Assembly (NCBI GenBank): GCA_964473525.1
Contig: CAYYPK010000034.1
Location: forward strand, 2,408-66,407
Source: an uncultured bacterium
GTDB lineage: Bacteria; Poribacteria; WGA-4E; GCA-2687025
DNA length: 64,000 nt
Reading direction: 5' to 3'
A program made the position numbers and the translations under genes. This document shows positions 15,426 to 62,883 of the stretch, in pieces (the first letter of the stretch is position 1; each line of letters begins with the position of its first letter). The notes beneath the pieces were generated by a model. It was not told the origin of the DNA and did no database searches. It saw only the letters and a program-made list of their open reading frames with translations.

Positions 15426-15835
15426 CTGGTGATCCCCTGGCGTTCTTGATAGTAGGACACCCGTGAACCAACATCCGTCAGCGGGAAATGCGTGGGCAGC
15501 GTGTTGGCCCGACGCGGCCATGTCGATTGAGGGTGTTCGCTCCCAGTAGGATGGCGCGCGGCGAAGTGCTAGACGGGCAATGCGCGACGGTCTTCTGCGT
15601 CGTGGGCGCCTCTGCACGCGGTCGTGCCGGGTTTGACCGCATAGCCCTGTCGGGTATATCCTGTAAAGGTGGGTCTCCCGCCTTACAGGGACAGTCTGGA
15701 ACGTCCCGCCTTCCCGTCTACGTACGTTCGCCTGCCATCGCGCCGGCATGCGGCTCGGTAAGAATCGCGCGCGTAGACATCAGTGGCGCCCGTAGCGCCT
15801 CGTGCCAACGCGGGTGAACCGCAGATTGGCCCTAC

Positions 15836-27049: not shown

Positions 27050-27084
27050 CAGCCTGATGCCGCGCAACCGGCTTCCACACCTGG

Positions 27085-28446
27085 ATGGAGGAAGCGGCAG
27101 TGCGCCCATCGTCCCGCTTCCTACCCGCATTTCCCGAAGAATGGCTCTGCCGCGTGTGGGAGCGGCCGGACCTGCTGCGGCAGCCCTTCCGAACGCTGGA
27201 CGGCAGGACGATCCGCATCCTCGACCCCGGAACGGCCAATCCCGTCGATGGCCCAGACTTCCTGGACGCGACGATCGAGGAAGACGGGAGACCGCGCCGC
27301 GGCTCTGTCGAGTTCCACTTTCGCACGTCAGACTGGTACGCCCATCGACACCACACGGACCCGCGCTACAACGGCGTCGTCCTGCACGTCGTGCTGAACC
27401 ACTCGCTCCCCGACCTTTACGTGCACACGGAGGAGCAGGGACGGGCGCCCATCGTGGAGTTGCGCACGCATCTGCGAATACCCGTCGGGGATCTCGCGAA
27501 CAGCCTCGCATCGGCCCCGAAGAAGTGGGACTGCCCGCTGCCCCACGACGCACCGGCCGAGGACGTCAGAATGCGTGTCATCGCGGTGCTTGGAGACGTG
27601 CGGTTCCTACGCAAAGCCGAGGCTGCTGGGGAGCAGCGCCGACTGCTGGGAGAGGACGAAGCCGTCTATCGGATGCTCGCCGATGCCCTCGGCTACGCGA
27701 ACAACCGCGAGCCGTTCGGGAACCTCGTGGACCTCGTGCCCCTCGACCGCCTGCGTGGTCTCGGCCCGGTAGACGCCGAGGCGATGCTACTCGGCTCCGC
27801 GGGGTTCCTCGCTACGAGCGCGCCGGACGCGCACACGCAACACCTACAGCGTCGATGGGCCGCGCTCGACGGGCGGAAGGAAACGCTGCTGAGGGAACAG
27901 TGGCGGTTCTCGCGGTCGCGCCAGGGCAACACGCCCGTGCGTCGCGTTGTCGCTCTGGCGGGTCTCGTGTCGGAATTCGGCGGGGCGTTTGTGCCACGCT
28001 TCAGGGGCATCTCGATGCAGGGAGATGCGGACGGCGGATGGCGGCCCCGTTGGCGATCCGTACAGGTCACGCCGGCGGCGTACTGGGCGGAGCGGCTGGA
28101 CGTGGGCAAGCCATCGCTGACGAAGGCGCGCTACCTCGTGGGGGAGACGCGAGCGCGCGACGTGTGGGTCAACGTCGTGTTACCAATGCTCGTCGCGAGT
28201 GGAGACGCGGCCCGTGGGGAAGAGACACGACGGCGGGCAATCGACCTGTACCACGGCCATCCGTCGCTGCAATCGAACTACAAGACGCGATGGGTCGCCG
28301 CTCAGGCGCTCAGGCTGCCTGACAAGGCCGACGCGAAGCAGCAGGCAAAGATCCAGCAGGGGATGCTCGAACTGTACGATGGCTTCTGCGAGCCACGGCG
28401 GTGCTTCGAATGCCCAATTCAGGCGGCGCGCGCTGTACCGACTTGA
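27085..28446 (+). CDS. DUF2851-family protein
   Basis: 'IRILDPGTANPVDGPDFLDATIEEDGRPRRGSVEFHFRTSDWYAHRHHTDPRYNGVVLHVV' matches my recollection of the DUF2851 N-terminal signature. Confidence 0.6.
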   Translation: MEEAAVRPSSRFLPAFPEEWLCRVWERPDLLRQPFRTLDGRTIRILDPGTANPVDGPDFLDATIEEDGRPRRGSVEFHFRTSDWYAHRHHTDPRYNGVVLHVVLNHSLPDLYVHTEEQGRAPIVELRTHLRIPVGDLANSLASAPKKWDCPLPHDAPAEDVRMRVIAVLGDVRFLRKAEAAGEQRRLLGEDEAVYRMLADALGYANNREPFGNLVDLVPLDRLRGLGPVDAEAMLLGSAGFLATSAPDAHTQHLQRRWAALDGRKETLLREQWRFSRSRQGNTPVRRVVALAGLVSEFGGAFVPRFRGISMQGDADGGWRPRWRSVQVTPAAYWAERLDVGKPSLTKARYLVGETRARDVWVNVVLPMLVASGDAARGEETRRRAIDLYHGHPSLQSNYKTRWVAAQALRLPDKADAKQQAKIQQGMLELYDGFCEPRRCFECPIQAARAVPT

Positions 28447-33122: not shown

Positions 33123-33129
33123 TCGGCTC

Positions 33130-34242: not shown

Positions 34243-34567
34243 CCGCGCGGCCTCCGTGTGCTGTGGGCTGCCGACTACCCGGCTGCGGACACGTCTGGGC
34301 GTCCGCCTCTGTCGGCGCAAACATCCCATGTGGACCAACGTCTGTCAAGATGTGGGCGTCCACGCCTTCTGGCGACCTGCGAGAGATCGGCGCCATCCGT
34401 TGAGCTATCAGTGGACGTGCCTTCGCCACGCACTTAGCATGGCGGGAGACACACACGGTGGTCCGGGTAGCGGCGATGCTATGTCCTACCGCGGAGCGCG
34501 GGACGGCGCGCCAAGCGAAGGCGCCATGTCGTACGCGATGCGAAGCTCAGAGGGAGCGTAAGCTAAC

Positions 34568-36280
34568 ATGGGAAAGTCCACGCCTGCGTCTGCGTCTGCG
34601 GACAGCCGCCGGCATGATCTGGACGCCTTACGCGCCACCGCCATGCTGCTGGGGATCGCCCTGCACGCCTCTCTCTCGTTCGTCAAGGTCGCTTGGGTAG
34701 TGCAAGACAGCCGGGAGCACGCCCTGTTCGGCCTGTTCGGCCTGTTTGCCGCTGTCGTACACGGGTTTCGGATGCCGCTGTTCTTCCTGCTTAGCGGCTT
34801 CTTCACCGCAATGCTCTGGAGACGAAGGGGCCTGAAGTCCCTCCTTGGGCAGCGAGTCCGTCGCATCGTCCTGCCGCTTGCCCTGTGCATGGTCACGGTC
34901 ATCCCGACTATGGCCGTGGTGAATGGGATCGCGATGGCAACGGGCATCGAGCGCTCAACCGTCCGCGAACAGAGCGGGGTTGCGCAAGCCGACATTTGGG
35001 CAGCCGCGCGAAGCGGCGCCGTCGACGCGATCCGCGAACACCTCGCCGCTGGCGTCGACGTCGACAGTCAGCACCCCGAGTCTGGCGGGACGGCGCTGGC
35101 CATGGCGACCCTGGGCGACCAGACTGAGGCTGTCGATCTGCTGCTGCGCAGAGGAGCCGATGTGAACGCGCGCGGCAGGGACAAGGGTACTGCCCTGCAC
35201 GCCGCCGCGTTCCTCGGCCACGCCGGGCCAGCTCGCCTGCTTGTCGAAGCGGGCGCCGACCTAGCCGCGCGAAACGGCTCTGGAGCGACGCCCACAGAAG
35301 TCCTGGCGACCGATTGGCCTACGACGCAGTTCATCGCCGAGCTCCTCTCGATCACAGTGGAGGAGGACAAGGTCATGGCGGGGAGGGAAGAGGTCGCTGC
35401 CCTTCTCGCGGAGGGCGATTCAGGCGCGCGGGTACCCGGCAGGTCCGCGGGGGCGCCGGCCCGGCAGCTCAAGGGGGTCCGGTCAGGGCGGATCCAGCAG
35501 CTCATGGCGACACCTGTATTCCACCATCTGTGGTTCCTGTGGTTCCTGTGCTGGCTGGTACCCGGCTTCGCCGTCTGTGCGGCAGTAGCAGACAGGCTTG
35601 GGTGGCAAGGGGCTCCTGCGTGGCTGGTCGTGTCGCCGGCGAGATTCCTGTGGCTCATACCGCTGACGCTGGTCCCGCAGTGGTTCATGGGACAGGCGCC
35701 TGGCAACTTCGGGCCCGACACGTCCGCAGGGCTTCTGCCGATGCCCCGCGTGCTGCTCTACTACGCGGTGTTCTATGGCTTCGGCGCGCTGCATTACGAC
35801 GCCGACGACAGCGAGGGGCGTGTCGGGCGCTGGTGGTGGCTGGCGTTGCCTGTGGCGTTCGTGCTGGCCCTTCCGCTGGGACTGGCGTTTTCCATGGGCG
35901 CCGTGGATAGCGTGGACCCACAAGCCCGTCGCGCGATTTCAGCCGTAGCGCAGGTAGGCTACGCGTGGCTTATGACGTTCGGACTGATGGGCCTATTCCG
36001 CGCGGTGCTTTCGCGCGAGCGCCGGTGGGTGCGCTACGTCTCGGACTCGTCGTACTGGCTGTACATTGCGCATCTGCCGCTCATCATCTGTGCGCAGATG
36101 GTCGTGCGCGACTGGCAGACGCCCGCGATCGTGAAGTTCCTCTTCGTCTGTGTCGCCGTCACTGGGGTGCTTCTGCTGGTCTACCACACGGTGGTTCGGT
36201 ACACGTGGCTTGGGAAGCTCCTCAACGGGCCGCGCCAGAGGCCGGGGAAGGCGGGCGCAGCTCCCTCCGCGACGGCGTGA
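34568..36280 (+). CDS. Acyltransferase_3-family membrane protein with an inserted ankyrin-repeat loop
   Basis: 'RRHDLDALRATAMLLGIALH' is the acyltransferase-3 N-terminal motif. About 10 TM. The central soluble ~200 aa carry ANK repeats ('GGTALAMATLGDQTEAVDLLLRRGADVNARGRDKGTALHAAAFLGHAGPARLLVEAGADL'). Confidence 0.7.
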   Translation: MGKSTPASASADSRRHDLDALRATAMLLGIALHASLSFVKVAWVVQDSREHALFGLFGLFAAVVHGFRMPLFFLLSGFFTAMLWRRRGLKSLLGQRVRRIVLPLALCMVTVIPTMAVVNGIAMATGIERSTVREQSGVAQADIWAAARSGAVDAIREHLAAGVDVDSQHPESGGTALAMATLGDQTEAVDLLLRRGADVNARGRDKGTALHAAAFLGHAGPARLLVEAGADLAARNGSGATPTEVLATDWPTTQFIAELLSITVEEDKVMAGREEVAALLAEGDSGARVPGRSAGAPARQLKGVRSGRIQQLMATPVFHHLWFLWFLCWLVPGFAVCAAVADRLGWQGAPAWLVVSPARFLWLIPLTLVPQWFMGQAPGNFGPDTSAGLLPMPRVLLYYAVFYGFGALHYDADDSEGRVGRWWWLALPVAFVLALPLGLAFSMGAVDSVDPQARRAISAVAQVGYAWLMTFGLMGLFRAVLSRERRWVRYVSDSSYWLYIAHLPLIICAQMVVRDWQTPAIVKFLFVCVAVTGVLLLVYHTVVRYTWLGKLLNGPRQRPGKAGAAPSATA

Positions 36281-36383
36281 CTAGCGAGGGCGCGCGCGCC
36301 CCTGACGCGCCGCGCGTCTTGACGTCGGTTGAATCTCATATGGTTAGCCAGTAGCCTACGCTCAGACGTTGGCGGGGCGATCC

Positions 36384-38654
36384 ATGCCACATTCGGACGC
36401 ACAGGCAGACGCACGGGCAGAGCCGCGTGATGGGCGCCATTGGCAGGTCGGCATTCCCGGCCTCGCGCCAGACTCTGAACACGCCCAGCTCGTCATCCTG
36501 TTCACGGACATCGCGGGATCGACGAAGCTCAAAGATAGCATGCCCGGTGACGACTACCACGCGCTGCTACTCGACCACGACGCAATCCTGAAGGACATCA
36601 TCACTCGCGACGACGCCGGGACGTGCGCCAAGCACACCGGCGACGGGTACCTCGCCGCGTTTCGCTTGAAGGATGTCGCCGTGCAGCGCGCTCTCGATAT
36701 GCAGCGCGCCATGCGCGACCACAAGCTCAGCATACGTGTCGGCATCAACGCCGGGCAGGTGCGCCTCAGGCGGATGGACGACGGCCGCTTCGACGTGTTC
36801 GGCCACAACGTCGATTGGGCGGCGCGCGCTGAGGCCATGGTGGAAGCTGGACACATATGCGTCACGCGCCCGGTGCACACGGACGCCTCGCGACAGCTTA
36901 ACTCCGGCGTCTGCTCGTGGAAACACCACGGCGAGTACGTCGTCAAGGACGGCGAGACCCCGCTCGACATCTGGGAGCCGCACGAGGCGGACGTCGATCC
37001 GATGCAGGCGCCACGCGGAAGCCGCATGTACGGCGCCCACCCGACGACATGGCACGTCCCCATACGCCGCAACCGCAACTTCACGGGTCGCGAAGGCATC
37101 CTGACGACGCTGTACGACTCGCTGCACAACCCGGCCCACGGAAACGAGAAAGATCGCGCCGCTCTGACGCAGACGGACGCCATTCACGGCCTCGGCGGCA
37201 TCGGTAAGACCCAGATCGCGGCGGAATACGCGCACCGCTACGCGGGCGAATACAACTGCGTGTGGTGGGTCGCCGCGGAGGATGCCTCCTCCCGACAGAC
37301 GGGCTACGTTGCGTTTGCGCAGCAACTGGGCCTGCCGCAGAAGGACGCGCAGGATCAGACCGTCACCGTGGCTGCCGTGCGTGAGTGGCTGCGCCTGAAC
37401 GACAAGTGGCTGCTGATACTCGACAACGCCCCGGACGCCGACGCCGTCGCGGACCTGCTACCCGACGGCGACTCAGGACACATCGTCATCACGTCGCGGA
37501 GCGCCGCCTGGCGAGGGACCGCGCGACCCCTGCTCGTGGTTACATGGCCGCGCGAGGAATCCGTTGAGTTCCTGCGCGCCCGCACGGGAGACGAGGGCGA
37601 CGCGGCAGACACACTCGCCGACGAGTTGGGCGACCTGCCTCTGGCGCTGGAGCAAGCGGCGGCGTACATGGACGCGGCGGGGATATCGTACGACGAATAC
37701 CTGGCGGGCTACCGCGAGGATCCCGCCGACGCGATGGAAACCGCAGCCCCGCTCGCGCACCCCGACCCGGTCGCAAGGACGTGGGAAGTGTCCATGGAGC
37801 GCGTTCGCGAGGAGTCGCCGGAGGCAGCGGACCTGCTGAACCTGTGCGCCTTCTTCGCGCCGGACGACATCCCGCGCGGCATCATCACGGAGGGCGCGGA
37901 GCATCTGCCCGAGCCATTGGCCTCAGCAGTGAGCAGTGTGCGCGCCATGGGAAGGGTCACGATCGCGCTACGGCAGTATTCGCTGATGACCGTGGACGGG
38001 GACGCGCTGTCAGTGCACCGGCTTGTGCAGCAGGTTGTGCGAGACAGCATGTCCGACGACGACCGCCAGCGATGGTGGGAATGCGCCGTGCGTTTGCTGT
38101 CCAAAGCGATGCCGGCAGACGTCCTAACCGATCCCGAGGTGTGGCCCACGTACGACCGCTTACTGTCCCACGTCCGCGCTGTGACAGAGGGCGAGACGGA
38201 GCCGGGGTCAGCCGCAGACGCGCTTGGGAGCATCCTCAATCACGCTGGTGCCTACCTTCAGATCCGCGCGCAGTTTGCCGAGGCCGCTGACATGCTCAGG
38301 CAAGCGGCTGCGGTCTACGAAGCCGATCTTGGACCCGACCACCCGGCCGTGGCGACCTCCGTCAACAACCTGGGCCTCGTGCTCAAGAGTCAGGGCGATC
38401 TGGACGGCGCGAAAGAGTGCTACGAACGCTCATTGCGTCTGGGCGAAGCCACCTACGGACCCAACCACCCGACCGTGGCGATCCGCGTCAACAACCTGGG
38501 CGGCGTCCTTTTCACTCAGGGCGACCAGGACGGCGCGAACGAGTGCTACGAACGCGCAATGCACATATTCGAGCAGGTCCTTGGTGCCGGACATCCGAGC
38601 ACGGAGACCGTGCGGCGCAGCCTCGCTGTAGTCCTCAGCCAGATGCGCGGCTGA
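36384..38654 (+). CDS. STAND NTPase: class III adenylate cyclase domain + NB-ARC + TPR repeats
   Basis: Cyclase: 'ILFTDIAGST', 'KHTGDGYLAAF', 'RVGINAGQV', 'GHNVDWAARAE'. NB-ARC: Walker A 'GLGGIGKTQIA', Walker B 'LLILDNA', 'ITSRS', 'GDLPLALEQAAAY'. C-terminal TPR_10/12-type repeats. The start could also be the TTG at 36369. Confidence 0.8.
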   Translation: MPHSDAQADARAEPRDGRHWQVGIPGLAPDSEHAQLVILFTDIAGSTKLKDSMPGDDYHALLLDHDAILKDIITRDDAGTCAKHTGDGYLAAFRLKDVAVQRALDMQRAMRDHKLSIRVGINAGQVRLRRMDDGRFDVFGHNVDWAARAEAMVEAGHICVTRPVHTDASRQLNSGVCSWKHHGEYVVKDGETPLDIWEPHEADVDPMQAPRGSRMYGAHPTTWHVPIRRNRNFTGREGILTTLYDSLHNPAHGNEKDRAALTQTDAIHGLGGIGKTQIAAEYAHRYAGEYNCVWWVAAEDASSRQTGYVAFAQQLGLPQKDAQDQTVTVAAVREWLRLNDKWLLILDNAPDADAVADLLPDGDSGHIVITSRSAAWRGTARPLLVVTWPREESVEFLRARTGDEGDAADTLADELGDLPLALEQAAAYMDAAGISYDEYLAGYREDPADAMETAAPLAHPDPVARTWEVSMERVREESPEAADLLNLCAFFAPDDIPRGIITEGAEHLPEPLASAVSSVRAMGRVTIALRQYSLMTVDGDALSVHRLVQQVVRDSMSDDDRQRWWECAVRLLSKAMPADVLTDPEVWPTYDRLLSHVRAVTEGETEPGSAADALGSILNHAGAYLQIRAQFAEAADMLRQAAAVYEADLGPDHPAVATSVNNLGLVLKSQGDLDGAKECYERSLRLGEATYGPNHPTVAIRVNNLGGVLFTQGDQDGANECYERAMHIFEQVLGAGHPSTETVRRSLAVVLSQMRG

Positions 38655-44116: not shown

Positions 44117-44738
44117 CGCCGCCCGACCAGGTGTCGTCGGTGAGCTGGTTGACGAGTTCCCCGTCGATGTAGGTCGTGATGGAGTGGTCCCGGGCAGCGA
44201 TCTGGACATCGTACTCGCGGTCGCGTTCCAGTGTGTAGTTCACCGTGCTCAGCTTGACGAGGTCCAGCCTGCCCTCGTCGTTGCGGGTCAGCTTGTAGAT
44301 GGCCGCCACCTGCCACCCGAGCATCAGGTCGAACGTGTACCAGCCGCCGCCATCCTCGTCTATGCGGAACATAATCGCGGCGTTGCCGCCCGCCTGAGGC
44401 GTGATCCGCGCGGACAGTTCCACGTTGCGCCACGACGGCTCTCCGAAAGCCAGCGCCGTGCTACCAGAGCGACTCTCGCCAATGAGACCGTCTTCCCCGA
44501 CGACCGTCCAGCCGTCCGGCGCGCTAGTGACAGGCGCGAAGGCCTGACCAGGCGCGCGCTGGCTCCATCCATCCCACGACCCGTCGAACATCGGCTTCCA
44601 TGCCATCCTGCCCAGGTTGCCCGCGATGACCGCGCGGGGCTCGTCAGACGCGTGCGAATCCGCGTCTCCGTGCGCAAGAGCCAGGAGTGGAATGGCCAGC
44701 AACGTAGAAACAAGCAACACAGTACGAAGTCGGGACAT
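44034..44738 (-). CDS. Secreted DUF1080-like jelly-roll protein (paralogue of the sigma-fused domain upstream)
   Basis: ATG at 44738 after GGAGAG. Signal peptide MSRLRTVLLVSTLLAIPLLALAHG. The mature part is ~55-60% identical by eye to residues ~190-370 of the 44792..45943 product. Its 3' end overlaps 43196..44116 by 83 nt, and the C-terminus diverges from the paralogue. Confidence 0.7.
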   Translation of the reverse strand: MSRLRTVLLVSTLLAIPLLALAHGDADSHASDEPRAVIAGNLGRMAWKPMFDGSWDGWSQRAPGQAFAPVTSAPDGWTVVGEDGLIGESRSGSTALAFGEPSWRNVELSARITPQAGGNAAIMFRIDEDGGGWYTFDLMLGWQVAAIYKLTRNDEGRLDLVKLSTVNYTLERDREYDVQIAARDHSITTYIDGELVNQLTDDTWSGGATGLPPVAPPMSSPAAHVATQSSPRPP

Positions 44739-44791
44739 GGGCTCTCTCCGCTGTAGTGGTTGGGTGAACACTTCGCGTCGGCGATCGTCCG

Positions 44792-45943
44792 TCAGTCCTC
44801 GTCCAACACGCGATAGCGCATTTCTCGATACAGGGTTTTGGATTTCCACACGGTCAGCCCGACGCGCCCACGCGCCCATGCGTCGTCGGTGAGTTGGTTC
44901 ACGAGGGCGCCGTCCACGTAGGTTGTGATGGAGTGCCCACGCGCCGCGATGCCGATCGTGTACTCACGACCACGTTCGACGGGGTAGTTCACGGTGCTGA
45001 GCTTCTCGAGTCCCGCCGGGTCAGAACCTGTTCGTGTGATTCGATGGATCGCCGCCACCTGCCATCCAAGCATCAGGTCGAAGACGTATCCGTTGCCGTC
45101 GTCGTCCATACGGAAGGAGACCTGTGTATTGCCTCCCTGAATCGGCGTGACAAGCGCCGAGACCTCAATGTCCCGCCATGACAGCTCACCGAACTTCAGA
45201 CCTACGCCGTGGCCATAGTCCTCGCCGACGAGACCGTTCCCACCGACGACCTCCCAACCGGCGGGGGCTTCTGAGACCGGCCGTGGTGGCTGTCCGCGTG
45301 ACGGCGCGCGCCAGCCATCCAGCGATCCGTCGACCATGGGTTTCCAGGGCATCTCGCCCTGGTTGCCCGCGATCACCTTACGAAACTCGTGCGGCGTGTG
45401 CGTATCGGCTCCGTTGGTCATCCGTCCGAGCTCCCTTCGTAGTGTGCCCCTCGCGTGATGCAGTCGACTCTTGACGGTTCCCGTCGGCAAATCGAGCAGC
45501 CGCGCGACTTCCTTCACGGCAATGCCGCCGAAGTAGTGCAGCCCCACGACAAGACTGTCCTTCGGGCTGAGCGCGTGTAGCGCCGCGACGACCTGCGGCG
45601 GCTCGTCCTCTTCCGCTGGCTGCGTGTCTGCGTATGCTGGCGCCACGCTCGCCAAGCGGGCAATCGCGCGTCCGTAAGCCGCGCCTGCCTGTCGTCGCCG
45701 TGTCGCGCAGCGGACGACCACCCTGTACAGCCAGGCAGGGAACCGTTCGGGCTCGCGCAAGGTCGACAGCCGGCGTACCGCGACGATCCACGCCTCCTGC
45801 ACGGCGTCGTGCGCGTCCTCCCGGTCGTGCAGGACGTTGTGCGCGATGCGTCGCATGGCGGAGTCGTATTCGTCGACAAGCGAACGCATGGCGGCTGCGT
45901 CTCCCGCCTGTGCCCGCTCGACCGTCTGTACGAGGTCGTCCAC
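44792..45943 (-). CDS. ECF sigma factor fused to a C-terminal DUF1080-like jelly-roll domain (no TM)
   Basis: GTG start with GAGGAGG upstream. Region 2 is 'DAVQEAWIVAVRRLSTLREPERFPAWLYRVVV'. Region 4 is 'LSPKDSLVVGLHYFGGIAVKEVARLLDLPTGTVKSRLHHARGTL'. A ~190-aa jelly roll follows directly. Confidence 0.75.
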   Translation of the reverse strand: MDDLVQTVERAQAGDAAAMRSLVDEYDSAMRRIAHNVLHDREDAHDAVQEAWIVAVRRLSTLREPERFPAWLYRVVVRCATRRRQAGAAYGRAIARLASVAPAYADTQPAEEDEPPQVVAALHALSPKDSLVVGLHYFGGIAVKEVARLLDLPTGTVKSRLHHARGTLRRELGRMTNGADTHTPHEFRKVIAGNQGEMPWKPMVDGSLDGWRAPSRGQPPRPVSEAPAGWEVVGGNGLVGEDYGHGVGLKFGELSWRDIEVSALVTPIQGGNTQVSFRMDDDGNGYVFDLMLGWQVAAIHRITRTGSDPAGLEKLSTVNYPVERGREYTIGIAARGHSITTYVDGALVNQLTDDAWARGRVGLTVWKSKTLYREMRYRVLDED

Positions 45944-46286
45944 CGCGTCACTTGCCTCCTCATATGACTATAGAGCGCGTCCATCGCTGCAGGTTTGGTC
46001 TGATTCTGCGTGGCGCGCGTGCGCTGTGCCTTCCGGCGCAACGCCGGCGCGCGCCAGGAATGATGTGTGGTCGTCCCTGCGGTCTGTATCGCGTTCGGAG
46101 GCCTGGCGCGCCGCCGGCTGCTGTTGCCACCTGCCTCCCCGCCTGCGAGAATCGCCGCGCAAGCTCTCAACCGCCCAGCCCTAATGCACACACTCCAGTC
46201 CAGCGCGCCGCAGGCAGAACCACTCCTTTCGACCGGTCGCCGCCCTCCGAAATCGGTCGCTCATGAGCCCGGCGCCAAGAAATCCG

Positions 46287-46314
46287 TGACAAAGCACGAC
46301 CACGCCCGTGTTAT
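46287..46314 (+). promoter_or_regulatory. Possible sigma-70-type promoter for 46324..48033
   Basis: TGACAA (46287-46292), a 16-nt spacer, then TGTTAT (46309-46314). By-eye match only. Confidence 0.2.
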
Positions 46315-46323
46315 CTCGGGAAG

Positions 46324-48033
46324 GTGGGCAACAGATCCATGAGCGCTGGGTCGGACGGACTAGGCGACGACTTCGATCAACAGGTGCTAGCGCACGTAGG
46401 CCTCATCCGGCACATCGGTAGCCGGAGCGAGAGGACGCGGCGTGACCTGGACGACTTCACCCACACTGTGCTCGTCGCCGTGTGGGCGGGGAAGAAGCAT
46501 GTCACCTACACGGACCACTTAGAGCGATGGATCGCGCGAATCGCCCATAACATCGTGATTGACTGGAACCGCAAGCGACAGCCAACGCTCTCGGGTGACC
46601 CGTTCGAGGTCGCCGCGCCCGTGCCGCCGATCGATGAGACGCTCGCGGTGCGGGACCGTTGGGAGAGTGTCGTCGCTGCGTTGTCCGCGTTGGATGAAGA
46701 TGAGCAACACCTCATCCGGTCACGATATCTGGAGGACCGCAGCTACGAGGAGCTGCAGGAGCAGTTAGGGATCTCTCAAGGGGCGATTCGCATGCGTATG
46801 ACGCGCGCGATGGGGCTTCTGCGCCGACGGCTGGCCATCGCGTCAGTCGCTCTCGCGTGGCTCACCGCACGTCCGCAAGCGAGAGCTTTTGGGGAAGTCC
46901 CAAGGGGGACCAATCGCATGACCAGCGCCGTTTCCGTGGTGACTTCGACACTCATGATTGGATGGTTGGGGATCAGCGCCCACGAGATAGAGGAATCCGC
47001 CGTGGATCTTGCCATGCTCTCCGCGCGTGGCGACACGTTCGTGCCCATCGCGCAGTTAAGTGGGTCGATGGACGCGTTCCGAGCGCGGGTGAGGCCCCTC
47101 GCGCCGCTGCCGGACGCGGGGCCGCGGCCCGTGATGGCAGCGCCTGGGTTGCCCGCTCCCGTGGCTCTTACCCAGAACGGGGCGGGCGATGGCGAGCCGG
47201 TCTGGTCGTCCGACGGGCAGGAGGTACTCTTTCACACGAATCGCGACGGCAACTACGAGATCTACATCATGGACAGTGACGGAGGAAACCAGGTACGACT
47301 CACCGACAATCCCGAGCAAGACCTGTTTCCAACCTGGTCTCCCGACGGGCAGAAGATCGCGTTTGGGAGAACCCAGGGCGGATGGGCAAACGGCGACATC
47401 TACGTCATGGACCGCGACGGAGGCAATGTCACGCCAATCGCCGTGGGTCCTGTCTTCGACTGGGATCCTCACTGGTCGCCGGACGGGGCACAGATCTCCT
47501 TCTCATCCAGTCGGGCCGGCGGGCGGATGGAGATATTCGTCATGGAACCTGACGGTGGCGGCGTCCGGCAGCTCACGCGCAACGGCGCGAATAGCTGGGG
47601 GGCTCGCTGGTCGCCGGATGGTCAGCAGATCGTGTACTTCGTAGAGAACGCAATCGCCATTATGGACCGCGACGGAGGCAACGAGGTACGGTTGGCGCCC
47701 AACGCGTACAATGACGGCCCAGCCTGGTCACCCGACGGGAGCAGGATTGCCTTCAGCTCCGGGCCTGAGCCAGTGGACACAGAGATCTACGTCATGGATC
47801 GCGACGGAAGCAACCTGACCCGGCTCACGGACACCGAGGCGAGGGACCGCCGCCCGAGTTGGTCGCCCGATGGCACGCAGGTCGCCTTCGAGTCGGGGGC
47901 GGCCGAGGCGGAGGACATATACGTGGTAGACGTCTCAGAACTGCTCTCGACAGACGAACCCACGGACGAGCCCGCAGCCGTCACTCCTTCCGGTAAGCGC
48001 CTGACGCGGTGGGGTGACCTGAAGCGCCGCTAG
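46324..48033 (+). CDS. ECF sigma factor fused via a TM segment to a PD40/TolB-like beta-propeller, TTWG-type tail
   Basis: Region 2 is 'HLERWIARIAHNIVIDWNRK'. Region 4 is 'LDEDEQHLIRSRYLEDRSYEELQEQLGISQGAIRMRMTRAMGLLRRRL'. Hydrophobic 'MTSAVSVVTSTLMIGWLGISA'. At least 5 PD40 blades ('PVWSSDGQEVLFHTNRDGNYEIYIM' and others). Ends ..GKRLTRWGDLKRR. The start may be GTG 46324 or ATG 46339. Confidence 0.75.
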   Translation: MGNRSMSAGSDGLGDDFDQQVLAHVGLIRHIGSRSERTRRDLDDFTHTVLVAVWAGKKHVTYTDHLERWIARIAHNIVIDWNRKRQPTLSGDPFEVAAPVPPIDETLAVRDRWESVVAALSALDEDEQHLIRSRYLEDRSYEELQEQLGISQGAIRMRMTRAMGLLRRRLAIASVALAWLTARPQARAFGEVPRGTNRMTSAVSVVTSTLMIGWLGISAHEIEESAVDLAMLSARGDTFVPIAQLSGSMDAFRARVRPLAPLPDAGPRPVMAAPGLPAPVALTQNGAGDGEPVWSSDGQEVLFHTNRDGNYEIYIMDSDGGNQVRLTDNPEQDLFPTWSPDGQKIAFGRTQGGWANGDIYVMDRDGGNVTPIAVGPVFDWDPHWSPDGAQISFSSSRAGGRMEIFVMEPDGGGVRQLTRNGANSWGARWSPDGQQIVYFVENAIAIMDRDGGNEVRLAPNAYNDGPAWSPDGSRIAFSSGPEPVDTEIYVMDRDGSNLTRLTDTEARDRRPSWSPDGTQVAFESGAAEAEDIYVVDVSELLSTDEPTDEPAAVTPSGKRLTRWGDLKRR

Positions 48034-48215: not shown

Positions 48216-49697
48216 ATGAAGGCAATCATGGTGATGTTCGACTCGTTGAACCGGCACATGCTGCCGCCCTACGGGTGCGACTGGACGCACGCGCCGAACT
48301 TCGCGCGGCTGGCGGAACGCACGGTCACGTTCGACAAGTCGTACATCTGCTCGATGCCCTGCATGCCCGCGCGTCGCGACCTGCACACGGGGCGACCCAA
48401 CTTCCTGCACCGCAGTTGGGGTCCACTGGAGCCGTTCGACGACTCCGTCCCTGGCATACTCCGCGAGAACGGCGTCAGCTCACACCTCATCACGGACCAT
48501 CAGCACTACTGGGAAACCGGAGGAGCTACCTACCACACGGAATACAACACGTGGGAGTTCCACCGCGGCCAGGAGGGCGACGCCTGGATCGGGCAAGTGG
48601 ACGACCCGCCTGAAGTGGACGCCGTCGGACGAAACGCCGGCGAGGGAGGCGCCCATCGCCAGGACCGCATCAACCGCCTGCACATGCAGAGAGAGTGCGA
48701 TCAGTCGCAGTCGCGCACGTTCGACTCCGGGGTCGAGTTCATCCGGCGCAACTCCGAGGCGGACAACTGGTTTCTCCAGCTCGAGACGTTCGACCCGCAC
48801 GAGCCGTTCTTCGCGCACCGTATGTACAAGGATCTCTACCCAGAGCACTACGCGAACTACGACGGACCACTGCACGACTGGCCGCCATACTCCAAGGTGA
48901 CGGAGACGCGCGAGCAGGTCGAGCACATGCAGCACGAGTACGCCGCCCTGCTCAGCATGTGCGACGCGAAGCTTGGAAACGTGTTGGACCTCATGGACGA
49001 GTTAGACATGTGGGAAGACACGATGCTGGTCCTGTGGACGGACCATGGGTTCCTGCTGGGCGAGCACGACTCCTGGGCGAAGTGCTGGCTGCCGTTCTAC
49101 AACGAAATCGCCCACACGCCGTTCTTCGTGTGGGATCCGCGCAGCGGAGCCAAGGGCGAGCGACGCGACAGCCTCGTGCAGCCGTCCATCGACCTCGGTC
49201 CGACGCTGCTGCAGTACTTCGGCATTGAGCCGACGGAGTCCATGCTCGGGAAGCCGCTGGGCGACACGATCGCGAACGACACTCCCGTGCGCGAGGCCGC
49301 CATCTTCGGGCAGCACGGCCATCAGGTGAATGTTACGGACGGGCGGCATGTCTACATGCGCGCGCCAGCGCGTGAGGACAACCAACCGCTGAACGACTAC
49401 ACGCTCATGCCGACGCACATGCGCAGCTCGTTCTCACCCAGCGAACTGCGGGACAACATCGAACTGGCGGAGCCGTTCTCGTTCACGAAGGGCTGCCAGA
49501 CGATGAAGATCGCCAACCGCGGCCGCAGTGGCATCTACCAATACGGCACGCTGCTGTTCGACCTTGAATCGGACGCTGGGCAACTGACCCCGCTGGAAGA
49601 CGCCGCTGTCGAAGCGCGCATGCAGGGGCACATGACGGACCTCATGCGCGAGTGCGACGCGCCCGCTGAGCAGTTCGACCGGCTTGGTATCGAGTAG
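48216..49697 (+). CDS. Sulfatase (formylglycine-dependent, alkaline phosphatase superfamily)
   Basis: 'MVMFDSLN' and 'CSMPCMPARRDLHTGR' contain the C-x-P-x-R sulfatase signature. 'LWTDHG'. Confidence 0.8.
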   Translation: MKAIMVMFDSLNRHMLPPYGCDWTHAPNFARLAERTVTFDKSYICSMPCMPARRDLHTGRPNFLHRSWGPLEPFDDSVPGILRENGVSSHLITDHQHYWETGGATYHTEYNTWEFHRGQEGDAWIGQVDDPPEVDAVGRNAGEGGAHRQDRINRLHMQRECDQSQSRTFDSGVEFIRRNSEADNWFLQLETFDPHEPFFAHRMYKDLYPEHYANYDGPLHDWPPYSKVTETREQVEHMQHEYAALLSMCDAKLGNVLDLMDELDMWEDTMLVLWTDHGFLLGEHDSWAKCWLPFYNEIAHTPFFVWDPRSGAKGERRDSLVQPSIDLGPTLLQYFGIEPTESMLGKPLGDTIANDTPVREAAIFGQHGHQVNVTDGRHVYMRAPAREDNQPLNDYTLMPTHMRSSFSPSELRDNIELAEPFSFTKGCQTMKIANRGRSGIYQYGTLLFDLESDAGQLTPLEDAAVEARMQGHMTDLMRECDAPAEQFDRLGIE

Positions 49698-50394: not shown

Positions 50395-51672
50395 CTACTT
50401 GCGGTACCTCTGCCTGCGCGTTCTGATTCGCACGTCCGTCGGCTTCCCGTAGCGCAATACCTTCGCGGGGAAGGCGGACCCCGCTGTCATCGTGAGCTTG
50501 ATGTGGGTTTCGCAGTTCTGCGTCGCCTCGTTGACCTGCACGCCGTCTACCGAGTAGATCACGTCTCCCGGCCGCAACTCGTCCCGTCCTCCGCTCCTGC
50601 TCCTGAGGCTAATCTGAGTCACCTCCGACGCAAGCCCGTCAACCTCGAGACCATGCCGCTTCTTCTCCCTGTCGCTCAGCGGTCGCGCGGAGAACGTCAG
50701 GATGGGCTCAACGGACCAGAAGCGATGGTACAGGTCGGTCCACCACCACTCCTTAGGCAGATCCACGGTAAGGGCGCGCGTCTCGCCGTCTCGGCTGACC
50801 GCGAACCGCACCTGCTCCGCGTCGCGACGCGTCTGACTGTAGAAATACTGCAGGTCGCCGAACGTCAGCGTCAGCGTGCCGTTGACGGCGACGATCGTGT
50901 CTCCGGCTCGCATTCCCGCGCGTTGGGCAGCTCCCTTAGCTTCCTTCACAACCAACCCGGTAGGCACATTCAGCTCAATGCCGATGGTCCTGATGTCTGG
51001 AGACCGGTACATGTCCCGGCGCCTATCGAGCTCGCCAGCGCGTTCCGCCTCCTGCGCCTGGTAGTCGGCAATAAGGTGACACTCCACGCATCGGGTCGGA
51101 AGTATCTCCCGCTTCACGCCCGGTATGTCCCTGGGATAGAACGGCTTGGGACGCGTCTGCTTTTCCAGCTTCCCTTGCTTGTAGAGTTCGTGTCGCTCGA
51201 GTCCCATCCTGAGGGCGACCTCAAGGCTGTCCAGGTCCAGGTAGGAATGAGCCGACCTTGCGTCCCTCCCACCGTAGCGCATGTAGATGTGCTCGTGGGC
51301 GTTCATGATGAAGTAGTAGAGCGCGTTGTGGCGATCGTAGTCGAAGAGCCCGATGTCGATGTTCGTCATGCTGGCAATACGCGCGGTGACATACTGCGTG
51401 AGCAGTTTGCCCCGAGGCGACGACTTGGCGGTATGCACAACCTGTGCATCAAACACGCGGCCGTTAATTCAGGGCACGCAACGAAACTCGACGAACAGAG
51501 GCTTGCCGGTAGCCTTCGCCTCAGCGATAGCCGCGCGATAGTTGTTGATCCAGTGGATCTCCGGCTCGGCCGCCAACGCAACTAGGCCGACGCCCATCAG
51601 CGCCAGATACGTAGCCGTGAAGCCAACCGCTAGGCGCCGCAAGGGCCGGCGGCCTGTCGTCCCGAACTTCAT
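50395..51672 (-). CDS. Membrane-anchored thioredoxin-like + 2x PDZ protein with in-frame TGA (51469..51471) at the CxPC second-Cys position; candidate selenoprotein
   Basis: ATG at 51672 after GGAGGAG. Signal anchor 'LAVGFTATYLALMGVGLVALAA'. '..GKPLFVEFRCVP-TGA-INGRVFDAQVV..' is in frame with track ORF 50395..51456. PDZ motifs 'GMRAGDTIVAVNG' and 'LRPGDVIYSVDG'. There is a hairpin downstream of the TGA. Confidence 0.6.
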
Positions 51673-51900: not shown

Positions 51901-53097
51901 CTACTCGGGCGCGATGCCCACGTAACGCGCCCTGGGACGGATGAGGCGGTCGGTCGCGTACTGCTCGATGGCATGGCCGATCCACCCGACGGTTCTGCCG
52001 AGAGCGAACAGCGTCAGCGCGCTGCCCATCGGTAGGCTCAGCGCGCGGCGCAGGGCGACGAGCGCAAAGTCGATGTTCGGGAGCTGCCCGAGGGAGTCTT
52101 CGACGGCGAGGGCAAGATCATCGGCGGGTGTGAGGCGCATCGCGTCCCCGTAGAGAGCGCGCGCGCGCGCCAAAAGCTCCGCGCCGCGAGGGTCGCCGCC
52201 GGGGTACAGCTTGTGTCCGAAGCCGGGAATGACGTCCCCACGCCGCAAGTAGTTCGCCAGAACCTGCGTGGCTCCGCCGTGGGCTTCCGCCTCGCTGAAC
52301 AGAGCCTCGACACGATCCGTCGAGCCGCCGTGCTTGTGGCCCTGCAATGCGGACAGGCCTGCGTTGACCGCCGCATAGAGCGTGGAACCCGTCGACGCCA
52401 CCGTCCGCGCGGTGAACGCCGACGCGTTGAACTCGTGATCGGCACAGAGGATGAGCGCCGCGTTTAGCACGTCGCGCGCGAGCCCATCATCCCCGTCGAC
52501 TCCCCACCCGGCCCGCAGGGTCTCCGCTACCGACGCGAGGGTATCGCCGCCTCTCACCGCGATGGAGGCGAACAGACCCACGATCCGCGCGCCAATCTCG
52601 GGCGCGACCTGTGGGTCTGGGTTGTACGCCGCCAGGTCGCTGGTCGAGGCCATGGGCGCTGCCACTTGGAAGGCGTCCGTGGGCGGAAGCGCGCGCAGGA
52701 TCTCCCAAGGGAGCGCGTCGGCGTCCTGCGGCTTACACACGATGCCGTCGCCGTCCGCCTGCCAGATCAGGGCTGCCACCTGCTCCAAGGTCGCGCGCCT
52801 CGACAGCTCGACAGCGTCCTTGCCTCGGTAGTAGAGCCTCCCATCGGATATGAGCGTGATGCCCGACTCCATCACGGGCGATCCCCAGTGCATCGCGTTC
52901 TCGATGGCTCCCGCCGGATCTCGCTTGCGCTCCTGGCGACGCTTCAGCTCCTGAACGTCCGAGGCGCTATACCGTCGGCGCCGCGTCTGTCCAGGCTCTG
53001 GCTCCGACCGCAGGAGCCCTCGGCTCACGTACGCGTAGAGCGTCTGGAGCGTAACGCCGAGCTCCTCCGCAGCCGCCTTCGCGCTTAGGTATCGCAT
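51901..53097 (-). CDS. Excisionase/MerR-type HTH domain fused to a citrate synthase-like domain
   Basis: N-terminal 'LSAKAAAEELGVTLQTLYAYVSRGLL'. A citrate-synthase fold follows, with 'CADHEFNAS', 'GHKHGGST', 'GFGHKLYPGGDPR' and 'PNIDFAL'. Confidence 0.7.
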   Translation of the reverse strand: MRYLSAKAAAEELGVTLQTLYAYVSRGLLRSEPEPGQTRRRRYSASDVQELKRRQERKRDPAGAIENAMHWGSPVMESGITLISDGRLYYRGKDAVELSRRATLEQVAALIWQADGDGIVCKPQDADALPWEILRALPPTDAFQVAAPMASTSDLAAYNPDPQVAPEIGARIVGLFASIAVRGGDTLASVAETLRAGWGVDGDDGLARDVLNAALILCADHEFNASAFTARTVASTGSTLYAAVNAGLSALQGHKHGGSTDRVEALFSEAEAHGGATQVLANYLRRGDVIPGFGHKLYPGGDPRGAELLARARALYGDAMRLTPADDLALAVEDSLGQLPNIDFALVALRRALSLPMGSALTLFALGRTVGWIGHAIEQYATDRLIRPRARYVGIAPE

Positions 53098-53139: not shown

Positions 53140-53224
53140 ATTGACAGTATATGCGGCCTCCGAGACATACTCAAGTCAGGCAGTTCCGCGTATCTCATAG
53201 CCGTGGCCCGTGAGAGGGATAGGC

Positions 53225-54346
53225 ATGTCAACAGGACTCGACGGTGTGGTCGCCGCGAAGACGCGTCTCAGTTACATCGACGGCATCGCAGGTCGTCTAA
53301 CCATAGGTGGGTACGCCGTCGAGGAGTTGGCTCCCCGCGCGTCGTTCGAGGAGGTCACGCATCTGCTGTGGCATGACCGACTTCCGAACGCCGCGGAGCT
53401 TGGAGCGCTCGCTGATGCGCTCTCCGACCATCGATCGCTTCCAGCGGAAGTACTGGACTTACTCAGCGCGGCGGCCAAGCGGGAGACCCCCGTTATTGAC
53501 ACGCTCCGCGTCGCCACGGACGCGCTGACGATGGGAGCCAAAGACGGCGATCCCCATCGCGATGCCGTGCGAATGGTTGCGGCCATGCCGACGATCGTCG
53601 CTACGTACTGGAGGCGGCTGCGCGGCGGGGACTCCGTGGCGCCGAACGCCGGTATGGGCCACGCGGAGAACTACCTGCACATGCTCACGGGCGAGCCGCC
53701 CGACCCGATGCAGGTCCGCGCCCTGGAGGCGTACTGGAACACAGTCGCCGAGCACGGATTCAACGCGTCCACGTTTGCCGCCCGCGTCATCGTGTCGACA
53801 CACTCGGACCTGGTCTCTGGCGTAACGGGAGCGTTGGGCGCTCTGAAGGGGCCGCGTCACGGCGGCGTGCCAGAACCTGTGCTGGACATGCTGCGCGAGA
53901 TCGGCCAGCCGGCGAACGCCGAGGCGTACCTGCGCGCGCTGCTCGACCGTGGCGACCGCATCATGGGATTCGGCCACCGCGCATACAAGGTGCGGGATCC
54001 TCGCGCCGCAGTCCTGGAACGGGTCGCGCGCCCTCTCTTCGAGAGCAACGCCGACGACCCCCTGCTGTCGTTGGCCAAGTCTGTCGAGCAGACTGCCGTG
54101 GCGCTGCTGGACGAGCACAAGCCAGGCCGTGGACTGCGCGCGAACGTCGAGTTTTACGCGGCGCTCGTGCTACACGCGTTGGACCTGCCGAAGGAGCTCT
54201 TCACCCCAACGTTCGCTCTCAGCCGCGTCGCGGGATGGACGGCGCACGCGCTCGAACAGCTCGACGGGGGCAGGCTCATCCGCCCGTTCTCGGAATACGT
54301 CGGTGGCGAGGGTCGGCGTTGGGAGCCGTTGGAACGGCGAGCGTAG
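53225..54346 (+). CDS. Citrate synthase (short, ~370-aa type; 2-methylcitrate synthase not excluded)
   Basis: ATG at 53225 after GAGAGGGA. 'GLDGVVAAKTRLSYIDG', 'HGFNASTF', 'GPRHGG' and 'GFGHRAYKVRDPR'. Confidence 0.85.
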   Translation: MSTGLDGVVAAKTRLSYIDGIAGRLTIGGYAVEELAPRASFEEVTHLLWHDRLPNAAELGALADALSDHRSLPAEVLDLLSAAAKRETPVIDTLRVATDALTMGAKDGDPHRDAVRMVAAMPTIVATYWRRLRGGDSVAPNAGMGHAENYLHMLTGEPPDPMQVRALEAYWNTVAEHGFNASTFAARVIVSTHSDLVSGVTGALGALKGPRHGGVPEPVLDMLREIGQPANAEAYLRALLDRGDRIMGFGHRAYKVRDPRAAVLERVARPLFESNADDPLLSLAKSVEQTAVALLDEHKPGRGLRANVEFYAALVLHALDLPKELFTPTFALSRVAGWTAHALEQLDGGRLIRPFSEYVGGEGRRWEPLERRA

Positions 54347-60504: not shown

Positions 60505-62883
60505 TCAGGAAGGAGTACCGTCGGTTCTGTCCGCGAGCGGGATCTCGATCAGAACCGTTGCTCCCTCGCCTGGGGTCGACTCCACCGTCACGCGCCCACC
60601 CACCATCCTTGCGCGTTCCTGCATTGACAGCAGGCCGAAGCGGCCTTCGACGGGACCGGCGAAGACTGCTTCGTCGTCGAACCCAACGCCGTCGTCCTCG
60701 ACCAGTAGAGACACGATGTGGTCGCCTTCGACGTGGGCCATTTGTAAGGCAACTGTCACCGCCTGGGCCTCCGCGTGTCGCACTACGTTTGTCAGGGCCG
60801 TATGTGCCAGGCGATAGAGTCCCACCTCCATCTCCGTCGATGCGGAGAGGCCGTCAGGATTGTGGATGTGCAGGTTGGCCGTGAACCCAGCGTTCTTCGC
60901 GAGTACACCTAGATCGCGGCGCAGGGCCGTCTCCAGACCTAGATCGTCGAGTGAACTAGGGCGCATGTCGAACGCGATCTGACGGATGTCCTCCAGCGTG
61001 CTCGATGTTACCTTGCGCAGCTCCGTCGCCTGGCGGGTAGCGTCCTCGGTTGTCTCGGCCGACTCTATGACTCGCAGGCCTATGAGAACCGACGTGAGCT
61101 CCTGCCCGACCTGGTCGTGCAACTCGCGGGCGATGCGGGCGCGCTCCTCTTCCTGTACAGCCAGCATGCGGTCCATCAGTTGCGTGCGCTGGTTCTCGCC
61201 GTCCTCGAGCGCTCGCGCGGTGGCGCGATGCTGCTCCGCCTCCCGCGCTAGCGCCGCCGTGCGGTCCTCGACCCGCTGCTCCAGGTCGGCGTTCAGACCG
61301 ATGAGCTCATCTCGCATCGCTTTCTGCTCGGTGATGTCCCGAACAACGCACGCGTAAAGCCTTCGGCCCTCGAGCAACACCTTCCCGATGGACATGCTCG
61401 CCGGGAAAGTCGTGCCGTCTTTGCGCCGCCCCTGCACCTCTCTGCGCGTGCCTACTGCCGTAGCTTCGCCCGCGCGCAGGTAGCCTTCGACGTAGCGGCC
61501 GCCCGACCGCCCGTCAGGGGCGGGCATCATCGTGCTGACATCCGAGCCCAGCAATTCGTCCCTGTCGTATCCGAACATGTCCGCCGCGGTGGGGTTCAGC
61601 GACGCGATACGCCCCTGGGCGTCCATTGTGATGATGCCGTCGACCGCTCCGTCCATGATCGCGCGCAGGTGCGCTTCACTGTCACGCACGTCCCGGATCG
61701 CTCGCTGACGCTCCGTGACGTCCGTCACCAACGCCATGAACCCACGCACGGAGCCGTCGTCCGCTATGTCGGGCACGTAGAGGCAGTCGGCATCGCGAGG
61801 GCCCTCCTCGCCTCCGGGCATTTCGAAGTCGAACCGAACGCGCTCGCCGGCCAGCGCCGCTTGGATGCCGTCGCGCGTCGCCTGGTAGAGAGTCTCGCCG
61901 ATGGCGTCGCGTACAGGTGTCCCGGGTATGTTCTCGGTGTCCCACCCGAACCAGTCGTTGTAGGCGCGATTGCAGAACACGTATCGCTCCTCCGTGTCGA
62001 CGTAGGAGATGAGCACCGGAAGGCTGTCGGCGATCAGCCGCGCCTGTTGCTCGCTCTGTCGTAGCGCGTTCTCCGCGTGCCGCCTGTCGGTGACGTCCAT
62101 CGTGACGCCGACAAGACGCCACCTGTCTGGGCCATCGGGCTCGATGAATACTTCCTCGTGGAGCCAGCGCGCCATGCCGTCGCGATCGACGCATGGGTAC
62201 TCCTGGGAGTAGCGTGGCGCGCCTGACCTTATGGCGTTGCGGCTGGTGCGTTCCATACGTGGGACATCTTCCGGCCGCCGCGATCGGTTGACGGCTTCGT
62301 GCCACGCTTCGCCAGGATGTAGGTCGACCGGGAGGAATCTCTCGGCAACGGCTTCGTCTACTGGGTCGACGTGCCAGTGCAGTTCGCCAGCGTGATCCGT
62401 TACCTTGGCGTGCCACAGCAGGCACTGCACGCCGGCTATGACGGCTCGGAGCTGGTCTTCGGCGCGGCGTCGCTTGGTGATCTCGGAGACGGTCCCGGTC
62501 AGGCGCCAACAGTTCTCGCCCACTGCGTCAATCACTACGTCCTCATGCAGCCACACCATGTCGCCGTACCAGTCGACGTGGCGCACATCCTCCGCGTACG
62601 ACGGCTCGCCCGCGAGGATGGCTTGCCGCGCGGTTTCGTCGGCGCGCCGCGCGTCCTCCGGCACGCGCGTTCGCAGTGTCCGCTCCCACGTATCACCAAG
62701 GCGCGCGACCTGCGGGAGCACACGGGGGAGTACCTCTGGGTTCACGACGCTCTGGTCCCACTCAAGGGATCCGTCACGCAGCGTTACGTCTGCCGTCCAC
62801 ACCAGGCACCGCATCCGCGATAGCGCTTGCTGGAGGACTGAATCGGGCATATGTTCAGGCATTCGGTCGGCCAATCGGCGCAC
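60505..62883 (-). CDS. Cytoplasmic multi-PAS sensor histidine kinase (HisKA_3 + HATPase_c), paralogue of 15836..18613
   Basis: H-box 'RIARELHDQVGQELTSV'. Its PAS is homologous to the FixL-like PAS of the paralogue but reads 'MMPAPDGRSGGRYVEGYL', with no His at the proximal position. Confidence 0.8.
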   Translation of the reverse strand: MRRLADRMPEHMPDSVLQQALSRMRCLVWTADVTLRDGSLEWDQSVVNPEVLPRVLPQVARLGDTWERTLRTRVPEDARRADETARQAILAGEPSYAEDVRHVDWYGDMVWLHEDVVIDAVGENCWRLTGTVSEITKRRRAEDQLRAVIAGVQCLLWHAKVTDHAGELHWHVDPVDEAVAERFLPVDLHPGEAWHEAVNRSRRPEDVPRMERTSRNAIRSGAPRYSQEYPCVDRDGMARWLHEEVFIEPDGPDRWRLVGVTMDVTDRRHAENALRQSEQQARLIADSLPVLISYVDTEERYVFCNRAYNDWFGWDTENIPGTPVRDAIGETLYQATRDGIQAALAGERVRFDFEMPGGEEGPRDADCLYVPDIADDGSVRGFMALVTDVTERQRAIRDVRDSEAHLRAIMDGAVDGIITMDAQGRIASLNPTAADMFGYDRDELLGSDVSTMMPAPDGRSGGRYVEGYLRAGEATAVGTRREVQGRRKDGTTFPASMSIGKVLLEGRRLYACVVRDITEQKAMRDELIGLNADLEQRVEDRTAALAREAEQHRATARALEDGENQRTQLMDRMLAVQEEERARIARELHDQVGQELTSVLIGLRVIESAETTEDATRQATELRKVTSSTLEDIRQIAFDMRPSSLDDLGLETALRRDLGVLAKNAGFTANLHIHNPDGLSASTEMEVGLYRLAHTALTNVVRHAEAQAVTVALQMAHVEGDHIVSLLVEDDGVGFDDEAVFAGPVEGRFGLLSMQERARMVGGRVTVESTPGEGATVLIEIPLADRTDGTPS

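Follow-up and report, generated by a model that had tools for sequence, protein, structure and literature searches.

The family nearest to the gene described here was reported from ocean metagenomes in 2008 under the name 'putative secreted serine protease MucD' (Zhang & Gladyshev 2008, PMC2398784), with two selenocysteine (Sec) sequences, 12 cysteine (Cys) homologues, a C-x-x-U motif and a predicted Sec insertion sequence (SECIS) drawn in Figure 7 of that paper. It is named 'PDZ domain-containing protein, pfam13899, CxxU' in PMC9312934, is listed in the table of a 2026 review as CxxU with one Sec, and is represented in NCBIfam by model NF041199, 'Trx7/PDZ domain-containing (seleno)protein'. 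We analysed a stretch of 64,000 nucleotides from an uncultured bacterium of the Poribacteria (assembly GCA_964473525.1, contig CAYYPK010000034.1, positions 2,408 to 66,407 of the forward strand; hereafter the window), in which a gene on the minus strand is interrupted by a single TGA at the second position of a thioredoxin-like C-x-x-C motif. The gene is a genuine member of family NF041199, and this UGA is very probably read as Sec. Its identity was thus already known: the call is correct, and is not a discovery. It has the architecture of the family throughout, with a signal sequence, then a Thioredoxin_7 domain that carries C-x-x-U, then two PDZ domains, and the Sec position is the same; nothing material sets it apart. 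The window copy has V at the first x, and this form, CVPU, recurs among the genome loci described below, CEPU and CAPU being the commonest there.

Two other groups of proteins invite comparison. The HtrA/DegP/DegQ proteases have a C-terminal tandem of PDZ domains in common with the Trx7/PDZ protein, which lacks their trypsin-like protease domain: neither the window protein nor any of 48 homologues matches Trypsin or Peptidase_S1, only the PDZ domains being matched. Public records give many homologues the name 'serine protease Do', 'C-terminal processing protease' or 'hypothetical protein'; since there is no protease domain, we regard the first of these labels as an annotation artefact of the PDZ domains. 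An N-terminal active-site region of the form W-x-x-Y...KP-[ILV]-hydrophobic strand-C-x-x-[CU] links the Trx7/PDZ protein, through weak matches, to the AGR2-like Thioredoxin_7 proteins and to the VPGUxxT families NF041382 and NF041383; the two VPGUxxT families are distant (15-17 bits, against cutoffs of 275-350) and have no PDZ tandem.

The interrupted gene and its homologues

Read directly, a single minus-strand frame runs from an ATG at 51672, with an AGGAG ribosome-binding site 7 nt to its 5' side, to a TAG at 50397..50395, and comprises 425 sense codons and one internal stop. That stop is the TGA at 51471..51469, codon 68, in the context KPLFVEFRCVP[TGA]INGRVFDAQVVH. Downstream of it the frame remains open for 357 codons, and the G+C content of third codon positions there (GC3, 0.80) is close to that of the 60 codons upstream (0.78). 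Programs that search for open reading frames (ORFs) restart at GTG 51456, four sense codons (INGR) beyond the TGA. This is the only TGA in the 64 kb that has coding-like sequence on both sides and an adjoining Cys motif, and no second credible TGA-interrupted gene was found within the window.

For scoring, U was written as C; the joined protein then matches NF041199 at 408.2 bits (E 3.1e-122; the curated cutoff is 300 bits), its residues 40-417 spanning positions 2-389 of the 390-position model. The N-terminal segment has the layout of an export signal, with a basic n-region, about 20 hydrophobic residues in a row and then A-L-A-A, and probably serves as one (Table 1). Pfam PF13899 follows at residues 41-83 (E 2.4e-6) and is found in all 14 full-length homologues. 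The nearest solved sequences to this domain are AGR2 and an exported cytochrome c biogenesis-related thioredoxin protein. The AlphaFold model of one of the Cys homologues (P0010; pLDDT 92) has a thioredoxin-type core of the beta-alpha-beta / beta-beta-alpha kind, a helical linker and the PDZ tandem; the tandem dominates a fold search with the whole chain, which returns the PDZ tandems of DegP/DegQ and RseP. Between the thioredoxin domain and the first PDZ domain lies a CxxCH motif, invariant in 48 of 48 aligned homologues. The motif resembles a site for the attachment of haem c, or else a second redox or metal site.

A preliminary description made from the sequence alone had presented the gene as one frame broken only by a TGA, open downstream with normal GC3, encoding a thioredoxin domain and two PDZ domains, with the UGA at the second Cys of the C-x-x-C motif. 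All of this stands. Its further suggestion, that the architecture was that of a new selenoprotein, does not, because NF041199 is matched above its cutoff and the family has been described since 2008.

Searching a protein collection yielded 790 homologues, several of which bear the NCBI name 'Trx7/PDZ domain-containing (seleno)protein'. Among the best 120 of the 790, 106 are gene calls that start just after the UGA position, without the N-terminal Thioredoxin_7 part, and are 321-446 residues long (321-362 in most); the other 14 are full-length Cys forms of about 413-426 or 580-590 residues, which carry PF13899. In the alignment to these 14, the column of the window TGA is in every case the second Cys of RC[AT]PC.

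A scan of genomes, one per species, returned 74 loci, of which 72 keep the N-terminus. Fifty-eight of the 72 have C-x-x-TGA, three have TGA-x-x-TGA and 11 have Cys (TGC or TGT), so that the Sec form is the common state, present in 61 of the 72 species-level genomes. These loci span at least eight phylum-level groups: Sec forms occur in Poribacteria, Hydrogenedentota, Acidobacteriota, Planctomycetota, Acidimicrobiia, Nitrospirales, Verrucomicrobiia and Rhodothermaeota, and the Cys forms in nine Verrucomicrobiota genomes and two Nitrospirales. The closest loci are in Candidatus Poribacteria metagenome-assembled genomes (MAGs), at 72% identity, and synteny with these is confined to the Trx7/PDZ gene and the gene downstream of it.

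The U-x-x-U forms, with TGA at both active-site positions, were seen in three genome loci (L039, nt 2884-2895; L040, nt 3110-3121; L074, nt 6094-6105) and in one metagenome contig (L077, nt 1289-1333, minus strand). They read FR[TGA]AP[TGA]ADGR in two Akkermansiaceae MAGs and the metagenome contig, and FR[TGA]DP[TGA]GECK in a Planctomycetota MAG; both TGAs lie upstream of one and the same hairpin.

The hairpin 3' of the UGA codon

The preliminary description had also pointed to a SECIS-like hairpin beginning 19 nt after the UGA. A hairpin is indeed found at that distance: AUGCACA-GGU-UGUGCAU, at 51449..51433, has a 7-bp stem and a GGU loop, and stands on a short bulged lower stem (Table 1). 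It is present in the minimum-free-energy (MFE) folds, which give -11.5 kcal/mol for the stretch from UGA to +45 and, when the hairpin is folded by itself, -7.7 kcal/mol. The constraints on bacterial SECIS elements quoted in PMC13188914 are a loop of 3-9 nt, a stem of 4-16 bp, a G in the first two loop positions, a distance of 16-37 nt from the UGA and an MFE of at most -7.5 kcal/mol; the window hairpin, with its GGU loop, 7-bp stem, 26-nt spacing and MFE of -11.5 kcal/mol, falls within all of these. Like the SECIS of the Escherichia coli fdhF type and the bSECISearch consensus, it is a stem-loop in coding sequence just 3' of the UGA, with a small loop starting GG(U); it differs in having no bulged U in the upper stem, and no Rfam model matches it. 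Its loop lies about 7 nt further from the UGA than that of fdhF.

It is the comparison of genomes that shows the hairpin to be more than a product of chance. Of an initial set of 56 CxxU sequences, 51 carry the core GCACAGGUUGUGC / GCACAGGTTGTGC unchanged, at nt +25 to +37 counted from the U of the UGA, and all 11 Cys forms lack it. The hairpin overlaps a conserved peptide, D-A-Q-V-V, and codon usage within this peptide differs sharply between the two forms. For A-Q-V-V (codons +8 to +11) codon entropy in the Sec forms is 0.22, 0, 0.13 and 0 bits, against 0.4-2.2 bits, mostly above 0.7, at their other conserved columns with degenerate codons; in the Cys forms, which have the same residues, Ala reaches 1.49 bits and Val 1.94 bits. 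To judge from these codons, synonymous sites at the hairpin are frozen in the Sec forms only.

Covariation could not be read from the 56 near-identical CxxU sequences, because their stem is almost invariant, and became informative only once divergent loci were added. Divergent Sec forms keep the helix with other bases: CAACA-GGU-UGUUG in L074, ACGCA-GGU-UGUGU in L047, GCACG-GGU-CGUGC in L025 and GACC-AGUU-GGUC in L065 and L066. In an alignment of 32 sequences the 5-bp upper stem is 100% paired, with double (compensatory) changes in three of the five pairs; none of 500 shuffles equals this, and when the register is slid only 12-58% of cells are paired. The putative SECIS is nearly identical across phyla. 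The comparison with orthologues thus gives Cys or UGA in the active-site column, with the hairpin kept in the UGA forms and missing from the Cys forms, in line with what the preliminary description had proposed.

The linked lipoprotein and the probable role of the module

The gene directly downstream encodes a lipoprotein of 203 residues with a lipobox LIVG↓C and an invariant Cys pair in C-x4-C spacing, C150 (49901..49899) and C155 (49886..49884). It occupies this position in 64 of the 74 genome loci, and four of the other ten are cut by contig ends; the six related loci that have no adjacent partner include all three U-x-x-U genome loci. In Verrucomicrobia (Rubritalea, Luteolibacter) the partner is fused to the C-terminus of the Cys-form homologues, with 34% identity to the window protein (E 2e-29; P0036, P0070, P0087, P0107 and P0113 compared). 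Adjacency and fusion together argue for direct functional coupling of the two proteins.

The partner had been called DsbD-alpha-like, and so it proved, by a somewhat indirect route. The window protein itself has no significant Pfam or NCBIfam match: against Pfam DsbD_N (PF11412) it scores 12.8 bits (E 0.12), below the 25-bit gathering cutoff. A sequence-profile search of the PDB with the partner alignment also returned no match, so that the relationship could be established only by scanning the homologues with Pfam and by comparing folds. Thirty-six of 38 partner homologues match DsbD_N at E <=1, the best at E 5.5e-8. In the AlphaFold model of the partner (pLDDT 91) C150 and C155 lie at the ends of adjacent strands, and the top 12 PDB matches to this model are all DsbD N-terminal domains (6dnv, 1jzd, 3pfu, 1jpe and 1l6p among them), with TM-scores on the target of 0.57-0.73.

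The module may be compared with DsbD, its gamma and alpha domains and its clients CcmG, DsbC and DsbG. In both, a Thioredoxin_7-class domain is coupled to a DsbD-alpha fold, the alpha-fold domain carries its Cys pair on a beta-hairpin, and the site of action is extracytoplasmic, or would be so here given the predicted export. They differ in that no DsbD-beta/CcdA membrane domain lies in or near the module; in that the alpha-like domain is a separate lipoprotein, or C-terminal where it is fused; in the partner's C-x4-C spacing; and in that the Trx7/PDZ protein has a Sec active site and, in addition, the tandem PDZ domains and the CxxCH motif.

The module probably works as follows. UGA codon 68 is very probably read as Sec, the hairpin, whose apical GGU loop lies 26 nt away, acting as a bacterial SECIS that recruits SelB carrying Sec-tRNA(Sec). 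The product would be an exported protein of about 390 residues, in which C65 and U68 would form a selenylsulfide, and the PDZ domains would probably hold a substrate or partner peptide. By analogy with DsbD, the protein is most likely an extracytoplasmic thiol/selenol-disulfide oxidoreductase, and would exchange electrons with the co-transcribed DsbD-alpha-like lipoprotein as the gamma and alpha domains of DsbD do, or as DsbD-alpha does with thioredoxin-fold clients such as CcmG. It is possible rather than probable that the two proteins represent a widespread extracytoplasmic selenol/thiol relay that operates without a dedicated DsbD-beta, with CxxCH as a third redox or haem centre and, in the rare U-x-x-U forms, a diselenide. 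Such a relay may extend over Acidobacteriota, Planctomycetota, Poribacteria, Hydrogenedentota, Nitrospirota, Actinomycetota and Verrucomicrobiota; we found no description of one in the literature, in a search that was not exhaustive.

Table 1. Positions in the window of the Trx7/PDZ gene, its predicted elements and the linked gene.
Feature	Position	Strand	Basis
Complete Trx7/PDZ gene (very probable selenoprotein)	50395..51672	minus	reading frame, NCBIfam NF041199, Pfam
Probable N-terminal export signal, about residues 1-35, MKFGTTGRRPLRRLAVGFTATYLALMGVGLVALAA↓EPE	51568..51672	minus	read from sequence
Thioredoxin_7-like domain, about residues 38-165	51178..51561	minus	Pfam PF13899
Redox motif C65-V-P-U68 (TGC GTG CCC TGA), probable Sec codon at 51471..51469	51469..51480	minus	
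Putative SECIS element, short bulged lower stem under upper hairpin	51428..51458	minus	folding and comparison
C195-V-E-C198-H199 (CxxCH; RCVECH), between the thioredoxin domain and PDZ1	51076..51090	minus	homologue alignment
Tandem PDZ domains, about residues 231-305 and 335-417	50422..50982	minus	Pfam PDZ_2 and PDZ_6, two stretches each
DsbD-alpha-like lipoprotein, 203 residues	49737..50348	minus	neighbour linkage, Pfam of homologues, fold match

Other readings, neighbouring genes and meaning

Several results weigh against reading the locus as a selenoprotein gene with a redox role of this kind. Although the hairpin is present in the MFE folds, its stability is no better than that of shuffled sequences over 71 nt (z = -0.9) or 45 nt (z = -0.3), the 21-nt hairpin reaching -2.4; since stability over 45-71 nt is not significant, folding energy was not used as evidence. 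No Rfam SECIS family is matched in 51350..51520 (E <=10) or, at the gathering score, in the whole window, where only two tRNAs are found. The window holds no tRNA-Sec, and its 48 ORFs include no SelA, SelB or SelD by motif regular expressions and Pfam. No DsbD-beta or CcdA is found near the module in the window, and no third gene is conserved around the 74 loci. The function, and with it the direction of electron flow, is drawn by analogy. As to the Sec genes, they are usually unlinked to the genes of selenoproteins, and their absence from the window therefore tells neither for the call nor against it. The organism presumably possesses the Sec machinery; if it is a Poribacteria-like sponge symbiont, there is indirect support in the literature, since bins of sponge symbionts are enriched in SelA and SelB (PMC5649159) and Sec-containing hydrogenases have been reported in Poribacteria (PMC13582414).

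The alternative that survives best, which we nevertheless consider unlikely, accepts the selenoprotein and changes its role. The protein would be chiefly a haem- or metal-binding protein, through CxxCH, or a PDZ-guided chaperone or regulator of proteases, and the CxxU pair would protect or mature that centre, with no relay of the DsbD type. The invariance of CxxCH, the resemblance of the PDZ tandem to those of DegP/DegQ and RseP, and the six loci without an adjacent partner, all three U-x-x-U loci among them, speak for such a role. Against this, no cytochrome family is matched at E <=1 by any of the 48 members despite the invariant motif, and metal-binding families give only sporadic weak matches (DUF2387, probably metal-binding, in three); the protein has no protease domain, and the adjacency and fusion of the partner argue for direct functional coupling with it.

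The remaining alternatives concern the UGA itself. It is very improbable that the locus makes two products, a 67-residue N-terminal peptide and a 353-residue PDZ protein translated from GTG 51456. A start codon does lie only four codons past the TGA, and automated public annotations call exactly this ORF, but the thioredoxin fold would be cut inside its active-site motif and the downstream product left without a signal peptide. Furthermore, in the full-length Cys homologues one polypeptide runs through the junction and aligns on both sides of it, and no start codon is conserved at the point of restart: the truncated calls begin at differing residues.

Less probable again, and effectively refuted already, is that the TGA is a nonsense mutation in a pseudogene, or an error of sequencing or assembly, in a former Cys codon. 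One base change suffices to turn TGC or TGT into TGA, and gene callers do split the gene here (P0001, of 353 residues). The TGA is, however, identical in two independent public assemblies from Logan (SRR8062318 and SRR9166051), which show 0 mismatches to the window over about 3.7 kb, and it recurs in 61 other species-level genomes. Both its flanks are conserved as protein and keep coding GC3, and synonymous constraint and covariation indicate that the hairpin, which only the TGA forms have, has been preserved; the preliminary description, which had argued against a decaying pseudogene, was right on this point. Least probable of all is a global reassignment of UGA, for example that of genetic codes 4 or 25, in which it stands for Trp or Gly: nothing specific speaks for it, the genome is 65% G+C, the homologues have Cys rather than Trp or Gly in the column, no other in-frame TGA in the 64 kb is both flanked by coding sequence and adjacent to a Cys motif, and the reading is excluded by the many Pfam-supported window genes that TGA ends in the ordinary way (27058..28446, 34562..36280, 36348..38654 and 60505..62883, for example).

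Other genes of the window merit brief mention. Among them are a 639-residue ORF at 2208-4127 (plus strand), in which multihaem cytochrome domains (Cytochrome_C554, Cytochrome_C7) are joined to a C-terminal GILT/DsbA-like thioredoxin fold, a further unusual fusion of extracytoplasmic redox type; and, at 32547-33326 (minus strand), a TlpA/ResA-like lipoprotein of the AhpC-TSA/Redoxin type with a Cys active site, WCAPC, and the lipobox VMASG↓C, which is not a selenoprotein. Adjoining the Trx7/PDZ gene is the first of two divergently transcribed genes of the citrate synthase family, 51901-53097 (minus strand) and 53210-54346 (plus strand); in the former an N-terminal MerR/HTH_17 DNA-binding domain is fused to the citrate synthase fold. 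Six further genes, at 13863-15779 and 44034-45967 on the minus strand and 34562-36280, 36348-38654, 46267-48033 and 48216-49697 on the plus strand, are typical in content of bacteria that are sponge-associated or resemble the Planctomycetes-Verrucomicrobia-Chlamydiae group: ankyrin-repeat fusions (to an extracytoplasmic function sigma factor and to an acyltransferase), an adenylate cyclase-NB-ARC-TPR protein, sigma-70 domains fused to a 3-keto-disaccharide hydrolase or a PD40 beta-propeller, and a sulfatase.

The window itself holds nothing that would surprise a specialist. The worth of the finding is in better annotation: public gene calls split or truncate this gene and most of its homologues, each of which should be entered as a single selenoprotein about 420 residues long. 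To what was known of the family the analysis adds that the Sec form is the commoner one, that the predicted SECIS is near-identical across phyla, that a DsbD-alpha-like partner is linked or fused to the protein, that CxxCH is invariant and that U-x-x-U variants exist. The relay, if it is real, would add a mechanism to the family and leave the identity of the gene unchanged. The points added here make the Trx7/PDZ proteins a reasonable target for a first biochemical study.

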